Shown: positions 456-57,655 of the stretch, in pieces
How the letters are laid out: the number at the start of each line of letters is the position of its first letter
Numbering within the stretch: the stretch's first letter is position 1
From: Candidatus Parcubacteria bacterium
GTDB lineage: Bacteria; Patescibacteriota; Patescibacteriia; Patescibacteriales; UBA12075
Direction: 5' to 3'
Length of the DNA: 64,000 nucleotides
Assembly (NCBI GenBank): GCA_023132155.1
Contig: JAGLYP010000023.1
Coordinates: 11,504-75,503, forward strand
The notes under the pieces: generated by a model
The model's database searches: none
What the model was told of the DNA's origin: nothing
The model's input: the letters and a program-made list of their open reading frames with translations, nothing else
Program-made: the position numbers and the translations under genes

Positions 456-2192
456 TTATTCTTTGGTTACTCGCATTATTTCCTCAATTGTGGTGATGCC
501 GTTTTTAGCTTTGATAAAGCCGTCTTCAACCATGGTTAGCATCCCTTCTTTAACGGCTTGTTTGTTTATTTCGCGGGTGTTGGCGTTTTTTAGGATAAGA
601 CCGGATGTTTCTTCGGTGTTTTCAAGAATTTCATATATTCCTATTCGCCCTTTATAACCGCTGTTGTTGCAGCGCTTGCAGCCTTTTCCGCGATAAAAGA
701 GCAGTGATTTTAAGCCTTTTTTAGAGTCAATAATTATTTTTTCTTTTTCAAGCGTTTTTAAAAGACTTTCAATATTTAGCTGTTTTTCCAGTTCTTTTAC
801 GGTTTCTTTGCCAAGGTTAAAACTTTGAATGCAATTCGGACAAATTTTTCTTACTAAGCGCTGTGCGATAATTATGTTTGTGGTGGTGGCGATTAAAAAA
901 GTAGGGACTCCCATTTCCGACAATCTAATCATAGTCGCCGCGGCGCTATTGGTGTGAATTGTTGATAAAACCAAATGCCCGGTCATAGCGGCATGCACGG
1001 CGATTTCAGCGGTTTCCTGATCGCGAATTTCTCCGACCATTATAATATCCGGATCTTGGCGCAAAAACGCCCTTAGGCCAGAAGCGAAAGTATAGCCGAT
1101 TTTCGCGTTTACCTGCGACTGGTTGACATGCGGCATTCTGTACTCAATCGGGTCTTCAACCGTGGATATGTTTACCTCCGGTATGTTTAATATATTTAAA
1201 ACAGTATAAAGCGTAGTGGTTTTTCCGGAGCCTGTCGGGCCTGTTACTAATATTATTCCATGAGGTTTTTTGATGTTCGTTTTCAAAACTTTAAGCGGTG
1301 TTTTTTGCAGTCCTAATTGTTCAAGAGTTAAAACCTGGGCTTTTTCATTAAGGAGCCTTAATACGATTTTTTCTCCGTCAAAGGCCGGAATAATTGACAC
1401 GCGGAAAGCGACCTTGTATTCATTGTTTGTAATTTTAAAACGCCCGTCTTGCGGCAGCCGATGTTCGTCAACTTTTAAGTTGGCAAGTATTTTAATGCGC
1501 GCGATAATTCCGGACTGGACGGTTTTTGGCAAAACCATAACGTTTTTTAATATCCCATCAATACGATAACGCACTAAAATATTTTTTTCTTCCGGTTCAA
1601 TATGAATATCGCTCGCGCCTTCAATAATTGAATATTCAAGCAAAGTATCAACAATTCGCACTACCGGCAAGTCGGCCGCCAGTTTTTTTAAATCTTTTGT
1701 TTCTTCAAGCTTGTTTTTGTCTTCGCCCTTGTCATCGCTTAAATAATTAAATTCAGCCTTTAAGCTTTTGTGGTATTGCTTGAGCGTTTCTTTAATATTT
1801 TCCGGCGTAGTCAAACTGATATTGACATTAAGTCCGGTTTTTTTCTTGATAAATTCAAATATTTCCAAATCCTCCGGGTCAATAACCGCCAGCTTAATTT
1901 CTTTGTTATTAGTCTCATAAGCTATAATGTTGTGGGTAGTGGCTATGGGCTCTGGAATTAAAAATAATATATCTTTGCGGATGGTTTGATTTTTTAAATC
2001 TATAAAGGGAATTTTATAATAAGAAGCCGCGTTTTCATATAAAATCATGGGTGTTATTATATTTTTTCCCATTAAAAAAAATTCCATTTTTTTCCCGTTT
2101 TGTTTGGCTTCCTGAAGCAGAGAATCAAATTCTTCCGCGTTTAATATTTCCGCTTTGTCTAGTATGTTTTTTAATTGTTTGTCTGAAAACAT
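456..2192 (-). CDS. pilB: Type IV pilus assembly ATPase PilB (GspE family).
   Basis: 578 aa. It has an N-terminal GspII_E-like region, the Walker A GPTGSGKTTT, Asp/His boxes and a C-terminal CxxC...CxxC zinc motif. Confidence 0.9.
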   Translation of the reverse strand: MFSDKQLKNILDKAEILNAEEFDSLLQEAKQNGKKMEFFLMGKNIITPMILYENAASYYKIPFIDLKNQTIRKDILFLIPEPIATTHNIIAYETNNKEIKLAVIDPEDLEIFEFIKKKTGLNVNISLTTPENIKETLKQYHKSLKAEFNYLSDDKGEDKNKLEETKDLKKLAADLPVVRIVDTLLEYSIIEGASDIHIEPEEKNILVRYRIDGILKNVMVLPKTVQSGIIARIKILANLKVDEHRLPQDGRFKITNNEYKVAFRVSIIPAFDGEKIVLRLLNEKAQVLTLEQLGLQKTPLKVLKTNIKKPHGIILVTGPTGSGKTTTLYTVLNILNIPEVNISTVEDPIEYRMPHVNQSQVNAKIGYTFASGLRAFLRQDPDIIMVGEIRDQETAEIAVHAAMTGHLVLSTIHTNSAAATMIRLSEMGVPTFLIATTTNIIIAQRLVRKICPNCIQSFNLGKETVKELEKQLNIESLLKTLEKEKIIIDSKKGLKSLLFYRGKGCKRCNNSGYKGRIGIYEILENTEETSGLILKNANTREINKQAVKEGMLTMVEDGFIKAKNGITTIEEIMRVTKE

Positions 2193-2195
2193 TAA

Positions 2196-2257
2196 TCTCT
2201 GTCATTCCCGACACCCCCAGCCTCGCTAGAGAAATTATATTAAATGATCGGGAATCT
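2196..2257. repeat. Solo copy of a MITE-like terminal-repeat unit (an internal hairpin ATTCCCGA...TCGGGAAT), immediately upstream of the pilB start.
   Basis: GTCATTCCCGACACCCCCAGCCTCGCTAGAGAAATTATATTAAATGATCGGGAATCT is about 85-90% identical to both terminal inverted repeats of the element at 27318-27550. Confidence 0.6.
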
Positions 2258-2301
2258 TTTTAATTTATGATGAATTTATTATACCATATTTTGTGAAATA
2301 A

Positions 2302-2346
2302 AAAAATCGTAAGGAACAAAAATTTTTGTTCCTTACGATTTTTTTT
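2302..2346. terminator. Perfect 18-bp-stem hairpin flanked by A/T runs (possibly a bidirectional terminator or regulatory hairpin) between the divergent pilB and the Cys-rich protein gene.
   Basis: AAAAATCGTAAGGAACAAAAATTTTTGTTCCTTACGATTTTTT. Confidence 0.4.
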
Positions 2347-2665
2347 AATATTTTTTTAATTTTTATATGTTAATGTTAAATTAAAGAGGGAAACAGGGAT
2401 TATTTCAGTACTTGATGTTTTCTTTGGGGAACTGATTTTCGGATGGTAATGAAAGGACGGGGTACAAAAGCTTCAATTTTTGGAGCTTTTGTTTTTGTGT
2501 GTTATTATAATATAGAAATTGTTATTAAACACTATACTTCCCCCCGTTCTTTAGATAGTGAATTGGCAACTAAATGTAGTTTATTGATATTGTCGCATAT
2601 ATTTTATTATTTGTCTATAATATTGAATTTTTTGTTGAAATTAGGTAGAATATAAGTATAAGTTT

Positions 2666-16159: not shown

Positions 16160-16262
16160 TATTAAATAAGATTTTTAAGATTGTTGGGATTTTTAAGATT
16201 GTTAGGATTTTTATTATCCTAATCATCCTAGATATCCTAATCATCCTAAATATCCCATTTTT
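16160..16262. repeat. Low-complexity inverted repeat of GGATT/AATCC words (AAGATTGTTGGGATTTTTAAGATTGTTAGGATTTTT...ATCCTAATCATCCTA).
   Basis: Read from the sequence, immediately upstream of atpA. Confidence 0.5.
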
Positions 16263-16266
16263 TATT

Positions 16267-17844
16267 ATGTCAAATACAAAAGATTTCATTGTAGAACAAT
16301 TAAAACGGCAAATTGCCGGTTTTAAGCATGAAATTAAAGAGCAAACCGTTGGCAAGGTTATTAAAATCGGAGACGGAATCGCTCAAATTTCCGGGCTTTC
16401 CGATGTTATGATGTCTGAAATGCTTGAATTCTCAAGCGGCAAAAAATCCGACCCCGCCTCTCGCGAGAAGCGGGGCGAAATCCGATATGGTGTGGCATTG
16501 AACTTGGAGGAAGATAGTATTGGCGCTATTATTTTGGGAGATTTTTTTGGCATAAAAGAAGGAGATGAAGTTAAGTCATTGAAAAAAATTTTAGAAGTTC
16601 CTGTCGGAAACAGCGTAGTCGGAAGAGTAGTTAATCCAATGGGGCAGCCGCTAGACGGAAAAGGAGAAATATTGGCTGATAAATTTTATCCGATAGAAAA
16701 AATCGCTCCGGGAGTAATCGCCCGCGAGTCAGTAAGCGAACCGGTGCAGACAGGAATAAAAGCGATTGACGCGATGATTCCGATTGGCCGCGGCCAGAGA
16801 GAATTGATTATCGGCGACCGCCAGATTGGCAAAACCGCGATTGCCATTGACGCGATAATAAGCCAAAAAGGCCAAAATATGAAATGCGTTTATGTGGCAA
16901 TCGGGCAGAAAGAGTCAAAAGTGGCAAATATCGCGGCTAAACTGGAAGAGCACGGAGCAATGGAATATACGACAATTGTTTTAGCGGGCGCTTCCGATCC
17001 GGCTTCATTCGCGTATATCGCGCCTTACGCGGGTTGCGCTATGGCGGAATATTTTTTGGACAAAGGCGAAGATGTTTTAATTGTTTATGACGATTTAAGC
17101 AAGCACGCCGTTGCTTACCGCGAAATTTCCTTGCTTTTGCGCAGGCCGCCTGGGCGCGAAGCTTATCCGGGGGATGTTTTTTATCTTCATTCAAGATTAT
17201 TAGAAAGAGCCTGTAAATTAAATAAAGATTTTGGCGGCGGGTCAATCACGGCGCTTCCTATTATTGAAACGCAGGCAGGAGATGTGTCCGCGTATATTCC
17301 CACAAATGTCATTTCAATTACTGACGGACAGATTTATTTAGAGCCGGATTTGTTTTATCAAGGCAATCGTCCGGCCGTGAATGCCGGTTTATCGGTTTCC
17401 CGTGTTGGTTCTGCGGCGCAGATTAAGGCCATGAAAAAAGTTGCCGGCAAGATGAGACTGGAAGCAGCGCAATATCGCGAGCTTGCCGCGTTTGCCCAGT
17501 TTGGGTCTGACTTAGACGAAGAAACAAAGAGTAAATTAGAAAGAGGAAAGCGTCTGGTGGAAATATTCAAGCAGGATCAATACAAAACAGTTCCCGTTGC
17601 CAATCAGGTATTAATATTTTTTGCAATAATTTCCGGTTTGCTGGATGATGTGTCGGTTGAAAAAATTTTAGAATTTGAAGAAGAATTAAATAAATACGCG
17701 GAAAACAGCGGACAGGATATATTAAAGGATATTGCGGAGAAAGGAGAGTTGAATGAAAAGTTGGAGGAGAGGATGAAGAAGTTGGTTGAGGATTATAAAA
17801 GTACATTGGATTATTTAGAAAAAGATATTTCCACCGCCCTTTAG
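16267..17844 (+). CDS. atpA: ATP synthase F1 alpha subunit, carrying a 14-aa in-frame insertion.
   Basis: GDRQIGKT Walker A, and near-identity to E. coli AtpA across the core. An extra [14 protein letters not shown] sits between the conserved SSG and [10 protein letters not shown]. Confidence 0.95.
16441..16482 (+). repeat. 42-nt palindromic repeat inserted in-frame within atpA (the intragenic copy of the CCCCGCCTCTCGCGAGAGGCGGGG terminator-hairpin family).
   Basis: AAAAAATCCGACCCCGCCTCTCGCGAGAAGCGGGGCGAAATC. The same core occurs as intergenic hairpins at 23805-23850, 26761-26784 and 57210-57239. It spans exactly codons 59-72 of atpA. Confidence 0.75.
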
Positions 17845-22070: not shown

Positions 22071-23744
<1,674 letters not shown>

Positions 23745-23804
23745 AATGATTTAGGATTTATGATTTAGGATTTATGGTATAAATTAAGAGTTGAAAGATA
23801 ATTT

Positions 23805-23850
23805 AAAAAATCCGCCCCGCCTCTCGCGAGAGGTCGGGGCGGATTTTTTG
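23805..23850 (+). terminator. Rho-independent terminator after groEL; the canonical intergenic copy of the CCCCGCCTCTCGCGAGAGG-CGGGG palindrome.
   Basis: AAAAAATCCGCCCCGCCTCTCGCGAGAGGTCGGGGCGGATTTTTT. Confidence 0.75.
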
Positions 23851-23943
23851 TTTGCATAATTTTTAAAAATATAATATAATATAATTAAATGTGAATAAGC
23901 CATAGTTTTAATAATCATTAATCCTAACAAAAGGAGGTACGAA

Positions 23944-24468
23944 ATGAACAAAAAAATTGGCTTATGTATGTTGTTAGGCGCATTTTGCGCATTGTTTTTG
24001 GTAGCGGGCGCGACAGCCGACTTCATGGTGTCCCAGATGGCGATTACAGATTGCAGCATAAACGAGACAACCGAAAATCCAGTGAGGGATATGGTTGTTA
24101 TTACTGACGCGTTAACTGCACAGGAGGTCAGTTATCTCGTTTTTAACACTATTACGCCTGACATGATGGCAGCCGACGACACAGCGATCGGTCTTTGTGA
24201 ATTCGTAACGGCTAACGAGGCAACCGAAAATCCAGCGACGGATGTGGTTGTTATTACTGATGCGTTAACTGCACAGGAGGTCAGTTATCTCGTTTTTGAC
24301 ACTATTACGGTTGATGGTGTGACTAACAAAGACATCACAAATGACATCAGGAAATTTGTAACGGCTCAGGAGGTCCGTTCCCCCGTTTTTTGCTCTGTAC
24401 ATACAGCGGCGGATGAGTCTTCATTTTTCGCAGTCAAAGGCCATGTCGGCTATTGGTTAATGCTATAG
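23944..24468 (+). CDS. Secreted protein with two ~28-aa near-identical internal repeats; GC-rich with a strong Shine-Dalgarno sequence, probably acquired.
   Basis: A signal peptide; the repeats ENPVRDMVVITDALTAQEVSYLVFNTIT and ENPATDVVVITDALTAQEVSYLVFDTIT; about 46% GC; AAGGAGGT Shine-Dalgarno. Confidence 0.55.
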   Translation: MNKKIGLCMLLGAFCALFLVAGATADFMVSQMAITDCSINETTENPVRDMVVITDALTAQEVSYLVFNTITPDMMAADDTAIGLCEFVTANEATENPATDVVVITDALTAQEVSYLVFDTITVDGVTNKDITNDIRKFVTAQEVRSPVFCSVHTAADESSFFAVKGHVGYWLML

Positions 24469-24655
24469 TATACCATCTCCTTCCCTCTTTAAGTAGGGAA
24501 AATAGCGACCATAAGCCCGTAATTCCCCCTGACCTTTAATTGAGTGTTAAGAAAGCTCTATTATCGGTCAGGGCTTTCTTTTATTTTTAATTGCCTATTT
24601 TTGTTTATTATTATATAATCTAATTAAGCTTATAATATAATAATTTTCATAAATT

Positions 24656-25735
24656 ATGGAAAATAGTAAAAAACCGGTATATATCAATATTACCGCCATG
24701 GGGGTGGTAAAAATCATTTTAATTTTAGTTGTTTTTTATTTTTTATTTTTAATCAGGGAAATATTGGCAATATTGTTTGTTTCTTTGATTTTTGCCAGTG
24801 CGGTTGATCCTTGGGTTGATTGGATGCAAAGCAAAAAAATTCCCCGCGGATTGGGAGTTATTTTTATTTATTTGGTGATGTTTGGCGTGGTTGGCGCCGT
24901 AGTGGTCGCGATTATTCCTCCTATTATTGAACAAACCAATGAATTGCTTGCGAATTTTCCAGCGATATTTGAAAAAGTAATTTCCGGATTCCAGTATTTG
25001 CGCGATTATTCAATTGAGCATGGCATATTTGACAGTATAAAAGAGAATTTTGGTTCTCTTAGCGCTAATCTGCAAAATGCCGCCGGCGGAGTTTTTTCAA
25101 CGGTTTCCGGAATTTTTGGCGGAATTGTTTCTTTCTTTTTTGTTTTAATAATGACTTTTTATATGGTTGTTGAAGAAAACGCTCTTAAGAAAATCGTTTG
25201 GTCTGTCGCGCCGGAAAAGCATCAGATTTATATTATTAAATTAGTCAACCGCATGCAGAAAAAAATTGGTTTGTGGCTGCGCGGACAGTTAATATTATCT
25301 TTAATTATTTTTACTTTAACATATATAGGACTTCTTATATTGGGTGTTAAATATGCATTGGTACTGGCTTTAATAGCCGGTTTAACCGAATTTGTGCCGT
25401 ATTTAGGTCCGATTTTAGCTTCTGTACCGGCAATATTCCTTGCCTACACTCAAGAGCCTGTCTTAGCGATATTTGTGTTGGTTTTGTACTATGTTATCCA
25501 ATTAGTGGAAAATAATATTATAGTGCCGAAATTAATGCAAAAAGTAATCGGTTTGAATCCAATCATCAGTATCGCCGTGCTGCTAATCGGGTTTAAAGTT
25601 GCCGGCATAGTTGGGGCGATTTTATCAATTCCGGTTGCTACGGCCGTATCCGTATTTCTTTATGATTTGTTTGAAAGCAAGGTTAGCGGCCAATCTGCTG
25701 AAATAGATTCTTTTGAACAATCTCTTGACAGATGA
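24656..25735 (+). CDS. AI-2E family transporter (PerM/YhhT-like).
   Basis: 359 aa, polytopic, with the family-typical N-terminal TM pair and a conserved C-terminal region. Confidence 0.7.
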   Translation: MENSKKPVYINITAMGVVKIILILVVFYFLFLIREILAILFVSLIFASAVDPWVDWMQSKKIPRGLGVIFIYLVMFGVVGAVVVAIIPPIIEQTNELLANFPAIFEKVISGFQYLRDYSIEHGIFDSIKENFGSLSANLQNAAGGVFSTVSGIFGGIVSFFFVLIMTFYMVVEENALKKIVWSVAPEKHQIYIIKLVNRMQKKIGLWLRGQLILSLIIFTLTYIGLLILGVKYALVLALIAGLTEFVPYLGPILASVPAIFLAYTQEPVLAIFVLVLYYVIQLVENNIIVPKLMQKVIGLNPIISIAVLLIGFKVAGIVGAILSIPVATAVSVFLYDLFESKVSGQSAEIDSFEQSLDR

Positions 25736-25802
25736 GTAAAATCTGTTAAGATTAAACATCCAAAGTAAATACACAATTTTAATTTAACAAGGAGGTATCA
25801 CA

Positions 25803-26222
25803 ATGCTATTATCTTGTTCTTTACGTACGGAAACCAGATTGGCGATGATCCAATCACTTCGGATTGTCGGCGGCGCTACGGCGTCTATTTTTCCACAGGC
25901 GGAGGCAATGTTGCTTGGCAGTAATGATTACCAGAGTGCGCTTGAGTATGTGGCGGTCCGCAAGAGGATGAGCAGATATTGGTCTGTAATTGATTTCCTT
26001 TTCTGCGAGCTTCATCCGAGATGGCGCATAGCATGTTTTCGTTTTTACGCGGGCAATGGTCCGCGGCTCAAAGATCAAATCACGTCCGAACAGCTCGCGA
26101 CGTACAACAAACGATTGCTTAAAGCCATTGAGGTGGCTTACGACCTGTTTTGCGAACAACATCGTGAGAATTGGGGCTGGTACAGCGAGCAGGTGGAAGA
26201 AGCCATCAGAGCTGCCGCCTGA
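25803..26222 (+). CDS. Hypothetical protein, about 50% GC with a strong Shine-Dalgarno sequence (likely horizontally acquired).
   Basis: 139-aa ORF, AAGGAGGTATCACAATG, followed by two GC-rich hairpin terminators. Confidence 0.5.
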   Translation: MLLSCSLRTETRLAMIQSLRIVGGATASIFPQAEAMLLGSNDYQSALEYVAVRKRMSRYWSVIDFLFCELHPRWRIACFRFYAGNGPRLKDQITSEQLATYNKRLLKAIEVAYDLFCEQHRENWGWYSEQVEEAIRAAA

Positions 26223-26461
26223 ATCTTAACTGTAAACAGAAAAAGACGCGCGCAATGGCGCGTAAATTTAACCCCCGCGAACAGCAAGTTTATATGAATT
26301 TTGCTTAACGGGGGTTTATGTTTTTTATAAAGGAACTTAGCCCCTTATACGAAACTTGACATTTTTATTGGTATTTTTTGTGTTTTCCTGTATAATACAT
26401 AGTATAAGTGTGCCTTGTGGAAAAGACGCAAAATTAATTATTTAATAATAAATCAAAAATT

Positions 26462-26743
26462 ATGGCGAAAATGACAAAATCGCAATTGCTAACCGCATTA
26501 GCCGAGGCTACAGGGCTTAGCAAAAAAGACGTTGCTAATTTATTTGATAAATTGGCAGCTTTAGCCTATAGCGAGGTTAAAAAAGACGGAGAATTTGTAT
26601 TGCCCGGTTTTGGAAAGCTTGTAAAAGCTTATCGTAAGGCAAGAATGGGCAGGAATCCCGCCACAGGCGAGGAAATTAAAATTGCGGCAAAAACAGTTGT
26701 TAAGTTCCGTTTAGCAAAAGCCGCGAAAGACGCTGTATTATAA
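26462..26743 (+). CDS. hup: DNA-binding protein HU.
   Basis: MAKMTKSQLLTALAEATGLSKKDVANLFD...GFGKLVKAYRKARMGRNPATGEEIKIAAKTVVKFR.... Confidence 0.9.
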   Translation: MAKMTKSQLLTALAEATGLSKKDVANLFDKLAALAYSEVKKDGEFVLPGFGKLVKAYRKARMGRNPATGEEIKIAAKTVVKFRLAKAAKDAVL

Positions 26744-26760
26744 AAAAAGTGTATAAAATA

Positions 26761-26793
26761 CCCCGCCCCTCGCGAGGGGCGGGGTTATTTTTG
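26761..26793. terminator. Bidirectional terminator palindrome CCCCGCCCCTCGCGAGGGGCGGGG with a T-run.
   Basis: Perfect 10-bp stem between the convergent hup and HTH genes. Confidence 0.7.
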
Positions 26794-27111
26794 CCAATTT
26801 TCAATATATTGGCCGATTCCGTTTTGGTAGAGCTTGTTTCGCAGTTTTTTGTTTGAATGCAGATAATGAAGCGCTGATTTAAGATCCGTTTGGTAGCGAT
26901 TTTTAACTATTTTATATGTTATATTATTATTTTGAATAGCCCTTCTAATGGTTCTTGAATTTACTCCGCCAAGTTTTGCGGTTTCGGATACGGAAACCCA
27001 GATTGGATTTTTTATTTCAGTTAAAATAAGAATTTTTTCATCTTCTTTCTTTTTTTTACTATGCGATTTTTTTTTAATAAGGGGATCTGAAATTATTGTT
27101 TTTTCTGTCAT
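26785..27111 (-). CDS. Excisionase/MerR-like helix-turn-helix DNA-binding protein with a K-rich N-terminus.
   Basis: WVSVSETAKLGGVNSRTIRRAIQ is an HTH_17-type motif; 108 aa. Confidence 0.6.
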   Translation of the reverse strand: MTEKTIISDPLIKKKSHSKKKKEDEKILILTEIKNPIWVSVSETAKLGGVNSRTIRRAIQNNNITYKIVKNRYQTDLKSALHYLHSNKKLRNKLYQNGIGQYIENWQK

Positions 27112-34413: not shown

Positions 34414-34486
34414 GCCGGCGTAGCTCAGTTGGTAGAGCAATGGTTTTGTAAACCATCGGTCGGGGGTTCGAGTCCCTTCGCCGGCT
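34414..34486 (+). tRNA. tRNA-Thr (anticodon UGU).
   Basis: GCCGGCG acceptor, GCTC/GAGC D-stem, anticodon loop TTTGTAA, T-loop TTCGAGT; 73 nt. Confidence 0.85.
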
Positions 34487-34487
34487 C

Positions 34488-34523
34488 AAATAAAATAAGT
34501 CTCTTTTGGGACTTATTTTATTT
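34488..34523 (+). terminator. Hairpin terminator after tRNA-Thr (AATAAAATAAGTC-tcttttg-GGACTTATTTTATTT).
   Basis: Read from the sequence. Confidence 0.6.
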
Positions 34524-34526
34524 GAG

Positions 34527-34560
34527 AGGTGAATGGGACTCGAACCCCTTTGACCAGTAT
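34527..34560 (-). repeat. Inverted tRNA-like fragment (GGGACTCGAACCCC, the complement of a T-arm).
   Basis: GGTGAATGGGACTCGAACCCCTTTGACCA. Confidence 0.4.
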
Positions 34561-34643
34561 TTTTAGAGAGTAAAAACATAGGAATTAAAATAAAATAATA
34601 AAAGAAAATATTAACGTGAATAATGACGGTGTAGGGTTCACCC

Positions 34644-34665
34644 TTTCGAGTCCCTTCGCCGGCTC
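34644..34665 (+). repeat. Direct duplicate of the 22-nt 3' end of tRNA-Thr (an att-like scar).
   Basis: TTCGAGTCCCTTCGCCGGCTCA is identical to 34465-34486, about 160 bp downstream of the tRNA. Confidence 0.7.
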
Positions 34666-34710
34666 AGATATATAAAAAACTATCCTGAATAGGATAGTTT
34701 TTTATATATC
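34666..34710. terminator. Perfect 20-bp-arm palindrome (AGATATATAAAAAACTATCC-tgaat-GGATAGTTTTTTATATATCT); terminator for the HD gene.
   Basis: Read from the sequence. Confidence 0.6.
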
Positions 34711-34734
34711 TGAGGGGCGTGGAATTAATTTGGA

Positions 34735-56757: not shown

Positions 56758-57057
56758 ATGCAAAAAAAAGGATACAATTTTTATGTATATATTATGGCAA
56801 GCACAAGCGGTACGATTTATATTGGGATGACAAATAATTTGGAAAGAAGAGTTATTGAACATAAAAAAGGAGTAATTAACGGCTTCTCAAAAAAATATTC
56901 ATGCAATAAGCTTATATATTATGAACATTATCAATATGTATATGATGCGATTAGTAGAGAAAAAGAAATTAAAAAATGGCGCAGAGAGAAAAAACAAAAA
57001 TTGGTTGCAAAATTAAATCCGCATTGGAATGATTTGTCAAAAGAATTGTTTATATGA
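56758..57057 (+). CDS. GIY-YIG nuclease family protein (YhbQ-like).
   Basis: FYVYIMASTSGTIYIGMTNNLERRVIEH...KLIYYE...REKEIKKW. Confidence 0.75.
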   Translation: MQKKGYNFYVYIMASTSGTIYIGMTNNLERRVIEHKKGVINGFSKKYSCNKLIYYEHYQYVYDAISREKEIKKWRREKKQKLVAKLNPHWNDLSKELFI

Positions 57058-57209
57058 CAAGAAAAATAAAAATCAATATTTTTGAAGAGGGAAATAGGAT
57101 GATGGATTTTGACATATAATTATTTTTGTATAATAATGTGTTTACGAGCATTGATGACAGGTTGCATAATCCGCATAGGCATAAATATCTATGCTACATT
57201 TGATTTTAT

Positions 57210-57239
57210 AAGCCCTGCCTCTCGCGAGAGGCAGGGCTT
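57210..57239 (+). terminator. Palindrome AAGCCCTGCCTCTCGCGAGAGGCAGGGCTT (a member of the CTCTCGCGAGAG-core hairpin family).
   Basis: Read from the sequence. Confidence 0.6.
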
Positions 57240-57655
57240 ACAAAATTATTAATTTAGCCAAGTCATTCATGGCTGGGCGGTGAAATTTTACATTTTAATA
57301 GTTTTTTGAGAAATTTTTTAAAAAGAAAACAGCTCAAGAGGTTAGACCAATCAAGCTGAAAAAGTTAATTTGGTTATCCCATACCCGCTATTTTACGCGG
57401 CCCTTTCTCACGATGTTAGTGAGCAGGAGTGGCTAGTTCTACTATTTGCAGCGGGCGTAGACAGGTGCGTTATTGCGCCCAAAGCCATTCCCAAATTAAC
57501 TAAAATTATCCTAGCATATCAATTACAATTTGTCAATAGCGGGTGTAAAAAAAAATTTAAAAAATGGCTTAAGTTAAAAAAAATATTTATAATTTTAATA
57601 CAAAATATTCGGATTATTATACATAAATAAATTTTATTTTAAAATAAACATATTT

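Follow-up and report, generated by a model that had tools for sequence, protein, structure and literature searches.

The gene for subunit alpha of the F1 ATP synthase (atpA) of a Candidatus Parcubacteria bacterium contains, within its reading frame, a copy of a short G+C-rich palindrome whose relatives are dispersed over the candidate phyla radiation (CPR; Patescibacteria). The gene lies in a stretch of 64,000 nucleotides of contig JAGLYP010000023.1 (assembly GCA_023132155.1), and this whole stretch is called the window in the present text. We think that the segment in atpA is probably a loop expansion in two layers, of which the palindrome is a copy from a CPR-wide dispersed hairpin family that is carried as a tolerated passenger. 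The comparisons described here demonstrate an insertion event into atpA, the dispersal of the family throughout the CPR, and the recurrent survival of in-frame copies in the loops, linkers and tails of proteins.

The two layers of the atpA insertion

The features of the atpA site are as follows.

16267 to 17844, plus strand: atpA, subunit alpha of the F1 ATP synthase (525 amino acids) and host of the insertion; recognized by the list of open reading frames (ORFs), a protein match, Pfam and the synteny of the atp operon.
16441 to 16482, plus strand: loop segment of 42 nt (14 codons), a composite of heptamer-derived codons and the palindrome; it has no counterpart in the alpha subunits of E. coli and Bacillus.
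16444 to 16450, plus strand: AAATCCG heptamer unit directly 5' of the insertion, found by DNA comparison.
16452 to 16475, no strand assigned: near-perfect palindrome of 24 nt, CCCCGCCTCTCGCGAGAAGCGGGG, found by sequence and folding.
16452 to 16478, plus strand: insertion of 27 nt (9 codons) relative to the nearest relative (L001), consisting of the 24-nt palindrome and CGA.
16478 to 16484, plus strand: AAATCCG heptamer unit directly 3' of the insertion, found by DNA comparison.

In order to define the insertion, we compared the filled site in the window, codon by codon, with the empty site in atpA of L001 (P0002, 91% identity). The two sites read as follows.

L001, empty: TCA AGC AGT CAA AAA TCC GAA ATC CGA TAT
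Window, filled: TCA AGC GGC AAA AAA TCC GA[C CCC GCC TCT CGC GAG AAG CGG GGC GA]A ATC CGA TAT

The insertion is translated within the sequence K-K-S-[D-P-A-S-R-E-K-R-G]-E-I-R. The trinucleotide CGA stands on both sides of the palindrome (16449-16451 and 16476-16478), so that the boundary of the insertion is fixed only to within 3 nt. The palindrome itself has a single asymmetric position, which gives a C·A pair in the sense strand (GAGAAG for GAGAGG) and a G·U pair in the antisense strand. The heptamer on the 5' side, together with the three A's before it, makes up the 10-nt sequence AAAAAATCCG (16441-16450), which is common to the copy of the palindrome in the groEL terminator. At this heptamer tract the relatives have 2 to 5 tandem AAATCCG units; five units are found at the loop site of L002 and L129, and other short CGGA-based tandem repeats occupy the site in L126, L127 and L128. 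These results indicate that the 14-codon segment has two layers, that is, an older loop extension of 5 codons which is shared and built of heptamers, and a recent palindrome event of 27 nt.

The palindrome layer appears to be recent and confined to this species-level lineage. In the alignment the insert was present in only 1 of the 120 nearest AtpA clusters, and the three closest relatives free of the insert have SSSQKSEIRYG at the turn. Both the filled allele (P0001) and the empty one (P0002) come from the groundwater sample series SAMN18200491-505. An initial annotation of this DNA had described a clean 14-codon (42-nt) insertion and had proposed an alignment of atpA genes to see whether it is lineage-specific. 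Its quotation of positions 16441-16482 agrees with the sequence in the window (AAAAAATCCGACCCCGCCTCTCGCGAGAAGCGGGGCGAAATC), the 14-residue gap is real in comparison with the solved alpha subunit of Bacillus PS3 (PDB 4xd7/6n2y), and in the alignment the insert is specific to the lineage. However, only 27 nt belong to the palindrome event, and five of the codons come from the older heptamer extension.

The identity of the host gene is clear. Its ORF matches 'F0F1 ATP synthase subunit alpha [Candidatus Parcubacteria bacterium]' at 100%, it has the Pfam domains PF02874, PF00006 and PF00306, and its neighbors are the atp operon, followed by groES-groEL and hup. The possibility that the segment is an artefact of assembly, or resembles the other copies by chance, is practically negligible. 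The whole atpA gene has the same DNA in four independently assembled samples (NCBI GCA_030631305.1, two from ENA and one from Logan), which, at the level of assemblies, excludes the artefact considered in the initial annotation; the frame remains open and the rest of the protein is 91% identical to that of L001; and no match to the palindrome appeared in 100 dinucleotide-preserving shuffles.

A side observation concerns the DNA of the turn as a whole (atpA codons about 50-85; window 16420-16490). In every case examined (the window, L001, L002 and L126-L129) the DNA of the turn consists of short repeats, tandem or degenerate, that are variations of CGGA/TCCG, namely two to five AAATCCG units, a 21-nt duplication, CGCGGAA three times, or ACGGAT repeats. 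With a unit of 7 nt, a change in copy number is neutral for the frame only in threes. Short tandem repeats of the TAGGATTT/ATCCTAA type, which are similar to the AAATCCG heptamer of the atpA loop, also occur in intergenic DNA upstream of atpA (16200-16260) and downstream of groEL (23745-23780) (ATCCTAATCATCCTAAATATCC; GATTTAGGATTTATGATTTAGGATTTATGG).

Copies between genes in the window

Exactly four copies of the palindrome were found in the 64 kb at up to 3 mismatches, beginning at 16452, 23815, 26761 and 57213, and a search of the window at up to 7 mismatches gave no additional ones. The three relatives of the atpA copy (23815-23839, 26761-26784 and 57213-57236) lie 17-155 nt past the stop codons of groEL (22083-23744), hup (26462-26743) and the ORF 56758-57057. 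The hairpins are conspicuous because the G+C content of the window is only 36%, while that of the palindrome hairpins is 80-90%. The intergenic copies are as follows.

23805 to 23849, no strand assigned: groEL copy, 61 nt after the stop codon, with the structure AAAAAATCCG-palindrome with a 1-nt bulge-CGGATTTTTT; -34.6/-33.8 kcal/mol, z -6.2/-7.5.
26760 to 26785, no strand assigned: hup copy (CC/GG variant), between the convergent hup (which ends at 26743) and the ORF 26785-27111 on the minus strand; terminator-like on both strands.
57203 to 57246, no strand assigned: copy downstream of the ORF 56758-57057, a compensatory variant (CCCTGCC...GGCAGGG) whose paired, AT-rich flanks are extended; -30.9/-32.8 kcal/mol, z about -9.

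Each of these copies has a GC-rich stem and a 4-nt loop, with an A-run upstream and a T-run downstream, and each is extended by paired AT-rich flanks of its own with A/T runs. Their folding energies are -27 to -35 kcal/mol, with z values of -4 to -9 against shuffles, and a scan with a terminator consensus, which covered the groEL and hup copies, flagged both of them on both strands. We therefore suspect that the intergenic copies serve as the stems of bidirectional hairpins resembling intrinsic terminators. With these four copies, none of which has a match in the shuffles, the view of the initial annotation that atpA carries an in-frame copy of a hairpin repeat otherwise seen in intergenic terminators is upheld. 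About a dozen other terminator-like hairpins in the window have unrelated sequences, and the palindrome family is thus one recurring stem among many.

Empty sites were also sought for the intergenic copies. The terminators downstream of groEL in L126, L127 and L129 proved to be unrelated to that of the window, and intergenic DNA could not be aligned even to the closest well-assembled relative, so that this approach was abandoned. In the region just downstream of groEL, two Parcubacteria, L126 (18675-18730) and L127 (20295-20350), have a GC hairpin followed by ACATGCGAATAAG; this conserved motif also stands beside the palindrome in L039, L045, L083 and L121, and it is absent from the region downstream of groEL in the window. 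Elsewhere in the window, the 3' end (CCTTCGCCGGCTCA) of a tRNA at 34414-34486 is repeated about 180 nt downstream, and both copies of this end are followed by a long, perfect, AT-rich palindrome (34485-34526 with a 19-bp stem and 34663-34714 with a 24-bp stem). This arrangement at 34414-34714 looks like the remnant of an integration or of an att-site duplication.

The hairpin in the atpA messenger

In the sense strand, the atpA hairpin in a 65-nt context has a folding energy of -18 kcal/mol, which is no better than that of shuffles (z -0.1). No U-tract follows it, and the scan for terminator patterns never flagged the sense strand. Because of the C·A mismatch and the absent U-tract, the sense hairpin should not terminate transcription. 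The question of how a strong RNA hairpin can be tolerated inside the atpA mRNA, which had been raised in the initial annotation, loses most of its ground.

The antisense strand behaves differently, and it contains one further feature.

16441 to 16476, minus strand: terminator-like site with an 11-bp stem followed by CGGAUUUUUU, flagged by the pattern scan on the minus strand only; -23.9 kcal/mol, z -2.1.

The A-run that completes this site already existed as lysine codons before the insertion, as the comparison with L001 indicates. The antisense site is therefore probably incidental.

All six frames of the palindrome are free of stop codons, and by its symmetry the same three peptides are obtained from either strand. 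Since no frame is closed by a stop codon, the palindrome can enter essential genes without breaking them.

The site of the insert in the AtpA protein

Between ...EMLEF and YGVALNLEE, the alignment of the 120 nearest AtpA clusters shows a turn with 0 to about 25 extra residues within Parcubacteria. We modelled AtpA with AlphaFold2 from an alignment of 50 sequences. The N-terminal beta-barrel was well modelled, with a mean predicted local distance difference test (pLDDT) value of about 80 for this block, and residues 59-70, which have values below 50, lie between the strands 51-56 and 73-80. On account of this position the model places the insert at the turn of a beta-hairpin in the N-terminal beta-barrel ('crown') domain, which is the domain where the initial annotation had expected it.

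The solved alpha subunit 9itj has an extension of its own, 6 residues long, at the same turn. The turn is thus evidently permissive, and the alignment suggests that it is a general hotspot of length variation in Parcubacteria. We think that the atpA copy is probably a tolerated passenger, since its hydrophilic peptide DPASREKRG would lie in a disordered, solvent-exposed turn.

The palindrome family in the CPR

The query CCYGCCYCTCGCGAGRRGCRGG was searched against one genome per GTDB species. At least 117 loci were found, where we estimate that about 2 would be expected by chance; variants and flanks were counted in the 93 copies that lie in loci of low or medium G+C content. Among the matches listed, the family is overwhelmingly found in Patescibacteria and in many classes of them (Parcu-, Falkow-, Moran-, Uhr-, Magasanik-, Sacchari-, Collier-, Davies-, Levy-, Beckwith-, Komeili-, Doudna- and Buchananbacteria), with 1 to 6 loci per genome, and the present window has 4 copies in 64 kb. 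A few matches in actinobacteria of high G+C content are probably due to chance. About a quarter of the matches listed are labelled 'uncultured Gammaproteobacteria'. In one metagenome-assembled genome (MAG) so labelled, L013, all named relatives of the alanyl-tRNA synthetase (AlaRS) are Patescibacteria or Uhrbacteria, and the label is very likely wrong. As a side observation, L006, L008, L013, L015, L025 and others, which are binchicken/SRP co-assembly MAGs named 'uncultured Gammaproteobacteria bacterium', are of low to medium G+C content and contain the CPR palindrome; their taxonomic label, too, is probably wrong.

The consensus of the family is (A)CCCCGCCYCTCGCGAGRGGCGGGG(T). The perfect CCCGCCTCTCGCGAGAGGCGGG is present in 53 of the 93 copies, and the remainder are a few recurrent variants, some of which are compensatory (CCCTGCC/GGCAGGG; CC/GG). 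The conserved unit is 24-26 nt long, with C at position -1 in 78% and A at position -2 in 56% of the copies, and A/T runs are adjacent in only 37 of the 93. The other G+C-rich hairpins in the same 0.89 Mb, which consists of loci chosen for carrying the family, were genome-specific, that is, 98 of 107 occurred at a single locus. Half-sites of the palindrome occurred alone only 2 times in this 0.89 Mb, against 186 in the palindromic context.

On the contig JAJYXM010000016.1 (1.52 Mb), two copies (L030:7693 and L065:7215) lie about 480 kb apart. Their flanks are mutually reverse-complementary for more than 25 nt on each side, which means that the palindrome is part of a larger repeat, of which the contig has two copies in opposite orientation.

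Rfam 15 gave no family over any copy at the gathering threshold, and at a permissive threshold the region 23700-26900 of the window had just weak matches to the terminator parts of unrelated small RNA models. Carriage by phages was considered and rejected, because the palindrome of the family occurs in 1 of 2.9 million viral contigs. A literature search of incomplete coverage found no description of the palindrome sequence or of palindromic elements inside CPR proteins.

In-frame copies in other proteins and other contexts

The initial annotation had proposed a search for further in-frame copies inside ORFs. Such copies were found in at least seven other proteins, of confirmed identity, in other CPR genomes, as follows.

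UvrD (L078): in frame, peptide PAPREGRG.
PcrA/UvrD, in the linker before the Tudor domain (L066): in frame, PASRERRD.
PriA (L088): in frame, PASRERRG, within a composite repeat of about 120 nt.
NAD-dependent DNA ligase LigA (L111): in frame, PAPREERD.
ComM-like Mg-chelatase (L019): in frame, PASREKRG, the same peptide as in the atpA copy.
AlaRS (L013): in frame, with a second frame of the palindrome, APPLARGG.
SpoU methylase, in the tail (L118): in frame.

When compared with empty sites, the inserts in UvrD and AlaRS were lineage-specific. At the AlaRS junction 24 nt stand in place of about 6 nt (+18), and at the UvrD junction the net gain is about 12-15 nt; neither junction has a duplication. 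A constant insertion unit of 27 nt, which was considered as a candidate, is ruled out by these two values. Because the junctions of AlaRS and UvrD differ from that of atpA, the in-frame length of the copies is best explained by selection and not by a fixed unit.

Several observations on these loci stand by themselves. At the UvrD site, a relative that is 83% identical (L132:4467-4490) carries a different 24-nt hairpin, CCCCGCACCGCATGGGGTGCGGGG, where L078:5183-5204 has the palindrome. The outer stem of the two hairpins is the same and the apex is different; either compensated divergence or an exchange for another family member might account for this. A second GC-rich hairpin repeat (TLSPKGARG; DNA like ACCCTCTCCCCGAAAGGGGCGAGGGG) is present in LigA of L111 (2648-4873) as well, three times and in frame. 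The composite of about 120 nt with the palindrome is common to L063 and L088, which are otherwise unrelated. An apparent case in PriA of a palindrome conserved while its flanks drift was accordingly dropped, since L063 and L088 are not orthologous and share a dispersed repeat of about 120 nt.

The family also occurs outside protein genes. Upstream of an hrcA-like ORF in L103 (3430-3580), which was named by eye from its translated start, the palindrome stands at the center of the spacer in two copies of an operator like CIRCE (controlling inverted repeat of chaperone expression). These two are followed by an intact CIRCE, TTAGCACTC-TTGACAGGG-GAGTGCTAA (TTAGCACTC-N9-GAGTGCTAA). An inverted repeat that is already in place can receive a member of the family at its apex. 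In several CPR classes the palindrome stands directly after the anticodon in partial duplicates of tRNA-Trp or tRNA-Cys beside the intact genes, sometimes with a second G+C hairpin (tRNA-like contexts at L018:2247, L076:3128, L081:2416, L114:301, L115:2014, L119:1229, L092:318, L098:955 and L101:6380). In L101 a second copy of tRNA-Trp has an insert of about 60 nt after CCA, composed of the palindrome and a second GC hairpin. Such tRNA-like sequences may be functional variants, pseudogenes or cases of an insert resembling an intron. A conserved 'master' RNA gene behind the identity across classes was considered and rejected; the tRNA-like contexts are partial duplicates of tRNA-Trp or tRNA-Cys and not one RNA, and there is no Rfam match.

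How the copies may have arisen

We consider that new copies of the palindrome would arise by copying of DNA into new sites. The copying might be a transposition-like activity, with which the duplicated CGA at atpA and the dispersed 120-nt composite are in agreement. It might also be templated repair from a resident copy, anchored by microhomology or by the heptamer, for which the groEL terminator with its shared AAAAAATCCG is an example. Selection would then purge the copies from ORFs except those that are in frame in loops, linkers and tails. Neither mode of copying explains the apparently low copy number and the near-invariance across the superphylum, and this keeps a conserved binding factor as a rival explanation.

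The view that the atpA palindrome is a passenger copied from a dispersed family has to be weighed against several points that speak against it. Our search for a mobilizing enzyme found none. RAYT-like (REP-associated tyrosine transposase; REP, repetitive extragenic palindrome) Y1 transposases are present in two palindrome loci with NCBIfam scores below the cut-off, and one of them is flanked by a different REP of its own. The net sizes differ at the three pairs of filled and empty sites (+27, +18 and about +12-15 nt), and a flanking duplication is seen only at atpA; a single precise mechanism of transposition is therefore unsupported. The copy number appears low among the matches listed, since contigs of 0.49 Mb and 0.35 Mb have one exact match each and a contig of 1.5 Mb has two. 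So few copies with a nearly identical sequence across the CPR classes are unusual for a selfish repeat, and they hint at a sequence-specific constraint. In addition, the AlphaFold2 model is mediocre overall (mean pLDDT 64), the neutrality of the AtpA insert is a property that we infer, and the terminator-like role of the intergenic copies is judged by criteria of sequence. The initial annotation had spoken of a selfish palindromic element. The insertion at the DNA level is clear, but the selfish or mobile nature is what we infer, given that no mobilizing enzyme was found and that the net sizes are unequal.

It is possible, but in our opinion doubtful, that no dedicated enzyme is involved and that the atpA copy is a patch made by template switching or recombinational repair from a resident terminator copy such as that of groEL. 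The anchors would be the shared flank with the AAATCCG heptamer on one side and the CG(A) microhomology on the other, and the family would spread by illegitimate recombination among hairpins. The atpA and groEL copies have the 10-nt AAAAAATCCG in identical form, and this flank existed beforehand in the relative with the empty site; it occurs 5 times in the 64 kb, two of them abutting the palindrome, and the probability that a random pair of sites shares 10 nt is about 1e-5. The untidy junctions of AlaRS (24 nt for about 6) and UvrD (+12-15 nt), the hairpin of L132, which has an identical outer stem and stands at the corresponding position of UvrD, and the lack of a transposase linked to the family are also in keeping with such repair. 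However, it leaves unexplained the near-identical 22-24-mers with unrelated flanks in many CPR classes. Flanks of the TCCG type are present in only 4 of the 93 copies, one indel and one substitution separate the atpA copy from the groEL copy, and the composite of about 120 nt is dispersed between genomes. For the same count of 4 in 93, TCCG/AAATCCG was rejected as a general target, though two copies in this genome share the flank. We think it unlikely that the palindrome is instead a sequence-specific functional site, recognized by a conserved protein/RNA-binding factor, whose copies in genes are useful and not just tolerated. Candidates for such a factor would be a termination or processing factor, a protein of chromosome organization (cf. 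parS) or a receptor for DNA uptake (cf. the uptake sequences DUS and USS). This would agree with the exact 22-mers across CPR classes at low copy number among the matches listed, where flanks and other hairpins are not conserved, with the compensatory variants that preserve the stem (CCCTGCC/GGCAGGG; CC/GG), and with the fact that 5 of the 8 host proteins act on DNA (UvrD twice, PriA, LigA and ComM). On the other hand, half-sites hardly ever occur alone, unlike those of DUS and USS, with 1 copy per 16 kb the palindrome is much sparser than uptake signals, the contexts are very diverse and include pseudo-tRNA duplicates and the centers of operators, the atpA copy is already imperfect in its symmetry, and a candidate binding protein was not found.

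An adaptive gain in AtpA seems quite improbable to us. In that case the loop would make contact, at the F1 crown, with the peripheral stalk or the delta subunit, or the antisense terminator would shield atpA from transcription in the antisense direction; the crown loop has indeed been expanded independently in many Parcubacteria, and the antisense strand forms a canonical terminator-like site. But the inserts at the turn are unrelated between lineages and built of repeat DNA, which is the usual pattern at a permissive site, the AlphaFold2 prediction shows the loop as disordered, the insert is absent in the closest relatives, and the antisense A-run is older and consists of lysine codons. Highly improbable, finally, is a classical REP mobilized by a RAYT. 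Genes of Y1 transposases, with REP_Tyr_transpos as the best NCBIfam match, are present in two palindrome loci (L132 and L111), one of them directly upstream of the interrupted ligA (L111), and intragenic REPs are documented (PMC3733652). Yet the GTAG and CGTC tags each accompany 5 of the 93 copies, at or below the controls at random positions; the scores of the Y1 proteins are 44 bits, below the cut-off of 80; a hairpin of its own, TCTATCGAGGTTCAACCTCGATAGA, which is different from the palindrome, stands on either side of the L111 gene; 2 matches in about 125 loci are at the chance level for a single-copy gene; and the 64-kb window has no Y1 gene. For the copy in atpA we thus retain the account of a tolerated passenger from the dispersed family.

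The L111 locus (1900-2620) is itself of interest. Its RAYT-like gene (1946-2551, minus strand) lies between the REP copies TCTATCGAGGTTCAACCTCGATAGA, and a third copy of this REP lies inside the transposase gene (2089-2117).

Implications

The genomes of the CPR are tiny and streamlined, although unexplained insertions are a known feature of the conserved proteins and RNAs of these bacteria. The case of atpA offers a source, defined by sequence, for some of these insertions. One short hairpin repeat doubles as the stem of terminators and as a tolerable insert in essential genes. For annotation, this is also a warning that GC-rich peptides of 8-9 residues in CPR proteins (PASRERRG, PPLARGG) are derived from the repeat.

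We put forward, as a tentative speculation, that a near-invariant module of 24 nt is dispersed throughout the CPR by a conserved mechanism, that it lands at the apices of hairpins already present, such as terminators and the CIRCE operator, after the anticodons of tRNA duplicates and, in frame, in the loops of essential proteins, and that it is a general source of loop insertions and a seed of terminators in the CPR. If the family is as general as the matches listed suggest, it would be a marker for recent insertions and for strain-level polymorphism in uncultured CPR populations, and it would provide a natural map of permissive sites (the crown of F1 alpha, UvrD/PcrA, PriA, LigA and AlaRS). 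A tractable question would also follow, namely by what enzyme or repair pathway a palindrome of 24 nt is copied and what causes its constancy over the superphylum.

Comparison with known systems

Rickettsia palindromic elements (RPEs), which were reportedly described by Ogata et al. in 2000, offer a close parallel. RPEs are mentioned in PMC3733652 and PMC1166351. In both cases a non-coding palindromic repeat stands in frame in conserved, essential genes of a bacterium with a reduced genome, is translated as an extra surface segment, and occurs also in intergenic DNA and RNA genes. The analogy with RPEs drawn in the initial annotation is apt, as the in-frame copies in UvrD, PcrA, PriA, LigA, AlaRS and the ComM-like and SpoU-like proteins stand beside that in atpA. 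In contrast, the present unit is 24-27 nt long, while RPE-1 to RPE-8 are about 100-150 nt long with a CGTC end, and only the composite of L063 and L088 reaches about 120 nt. The phylum is also another one, the palindrome has no CGTC tag and spans many classes of a superphylum while RPEs belong to one genus, and its intergenic copies are terminator-like.

The mobile G+C clusters of yeast and other fungal mitochondria are GC hairpins in an AT-rich genome, which are found in intergenic DNA, in RNA genes and in frame in var1, with very short flanking direct repeats. The scattering of short GC hairpins over AT-rich DNA, RNA genes and, in frame, protein genes is a close functional analogy. The differences are that the present family resides on a bacterial chromosome, has another sequence, and shows a 3-nt duplication at one site only.

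The DNA uptake sequences (DUS) of Neisseria and the uptake signal sequences (USS) of Pasteurellaceae are short conserved motifs, often paired as inverted repeats in terminators and also present in genes, and for DUS a bias towards genes of genome maintenance is reported. The host genes of the palindrome that act on DNA echo this bias. However, DUS and USS are asymmetric, mostly single sites at about 1 per kb within one family, while the palindrome has half-sites virtually never alone (2 against 186), a density of 1 per 16 kb, that is, 10-20 times lower, and conservation over a superphylum. A DUS-like uptake signal was rejected for the scarcity of lone half-sites.

The palindrome also departs from miniature inverted-repeat transposable elements, which have terminal inverted repeats, duplicate their target site at a fixed length and share their ends with a related full-length IS. 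The CGA duplication is seen at atpA only, AlaRS and UvrD have none and the net sizes are unequal, and half-sites standing apart, as the two ends of a full-length element would be, are lacking (2 in 0.89 Mb). As for intrinsic (Rho-independent) terminators, the three intergenic copies and the antisense strand of atpA have the expected form, and the sense strand of atpA does not, since it lacks the U-tract; ordinary terminators, moreover, are not conserved in sequence between sites and genomes.

REPs of the GTAG and CGTC superfamilies carry, at one end of their stem-loop, the tetranucleotide GTAG or CGTC in unpaired form, and many intragenic REPs lie in genes of replication and repair (Di Nocera et al. 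2013; PMC3733652). Like REPs, which are stem-loop repeats of 20-40 nt mostly downstream of genes, the palindrome is short (24-26 nt), stands after stop codons in 3 of the 4 copies in the window, and has sub-families with compensatory changes in the stem; the host genes UvrD, PriA and LigA recall those of intragenic REPs. Unlike REPs, it is untagged and fully symmetric. GTAG was found within 12 nt of 5 of the 93 copies (control at random positions, 6.0 ± 2.5), and CGTC likewise of 5 of the 93 (control, 8.8 ± 2.7). A cognate RAYT flanked by the palindrome was not found in L111 and L132, whose genes are below the cut-off, or in the window, and with the different hairpin of L111 the link to RAYTs and REPs was rejected. 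REPs number tens to thousands per genome, and the copy number of the palindrome appears low among the matches listed; its distribution in the CPR lies outside the surveys of REPs that we consulted.

In conclusion, the palindrome is neither a GTAG/CGTC REP nor an RPE nor a DUS-like sequence, and it works in the manner of intragenic palindromic repeats. Such repeats are already known and have well-known analogues, and the interest of the present family is increased by its spread throughout the CPR and by its recurrent copies in essential enzymes.

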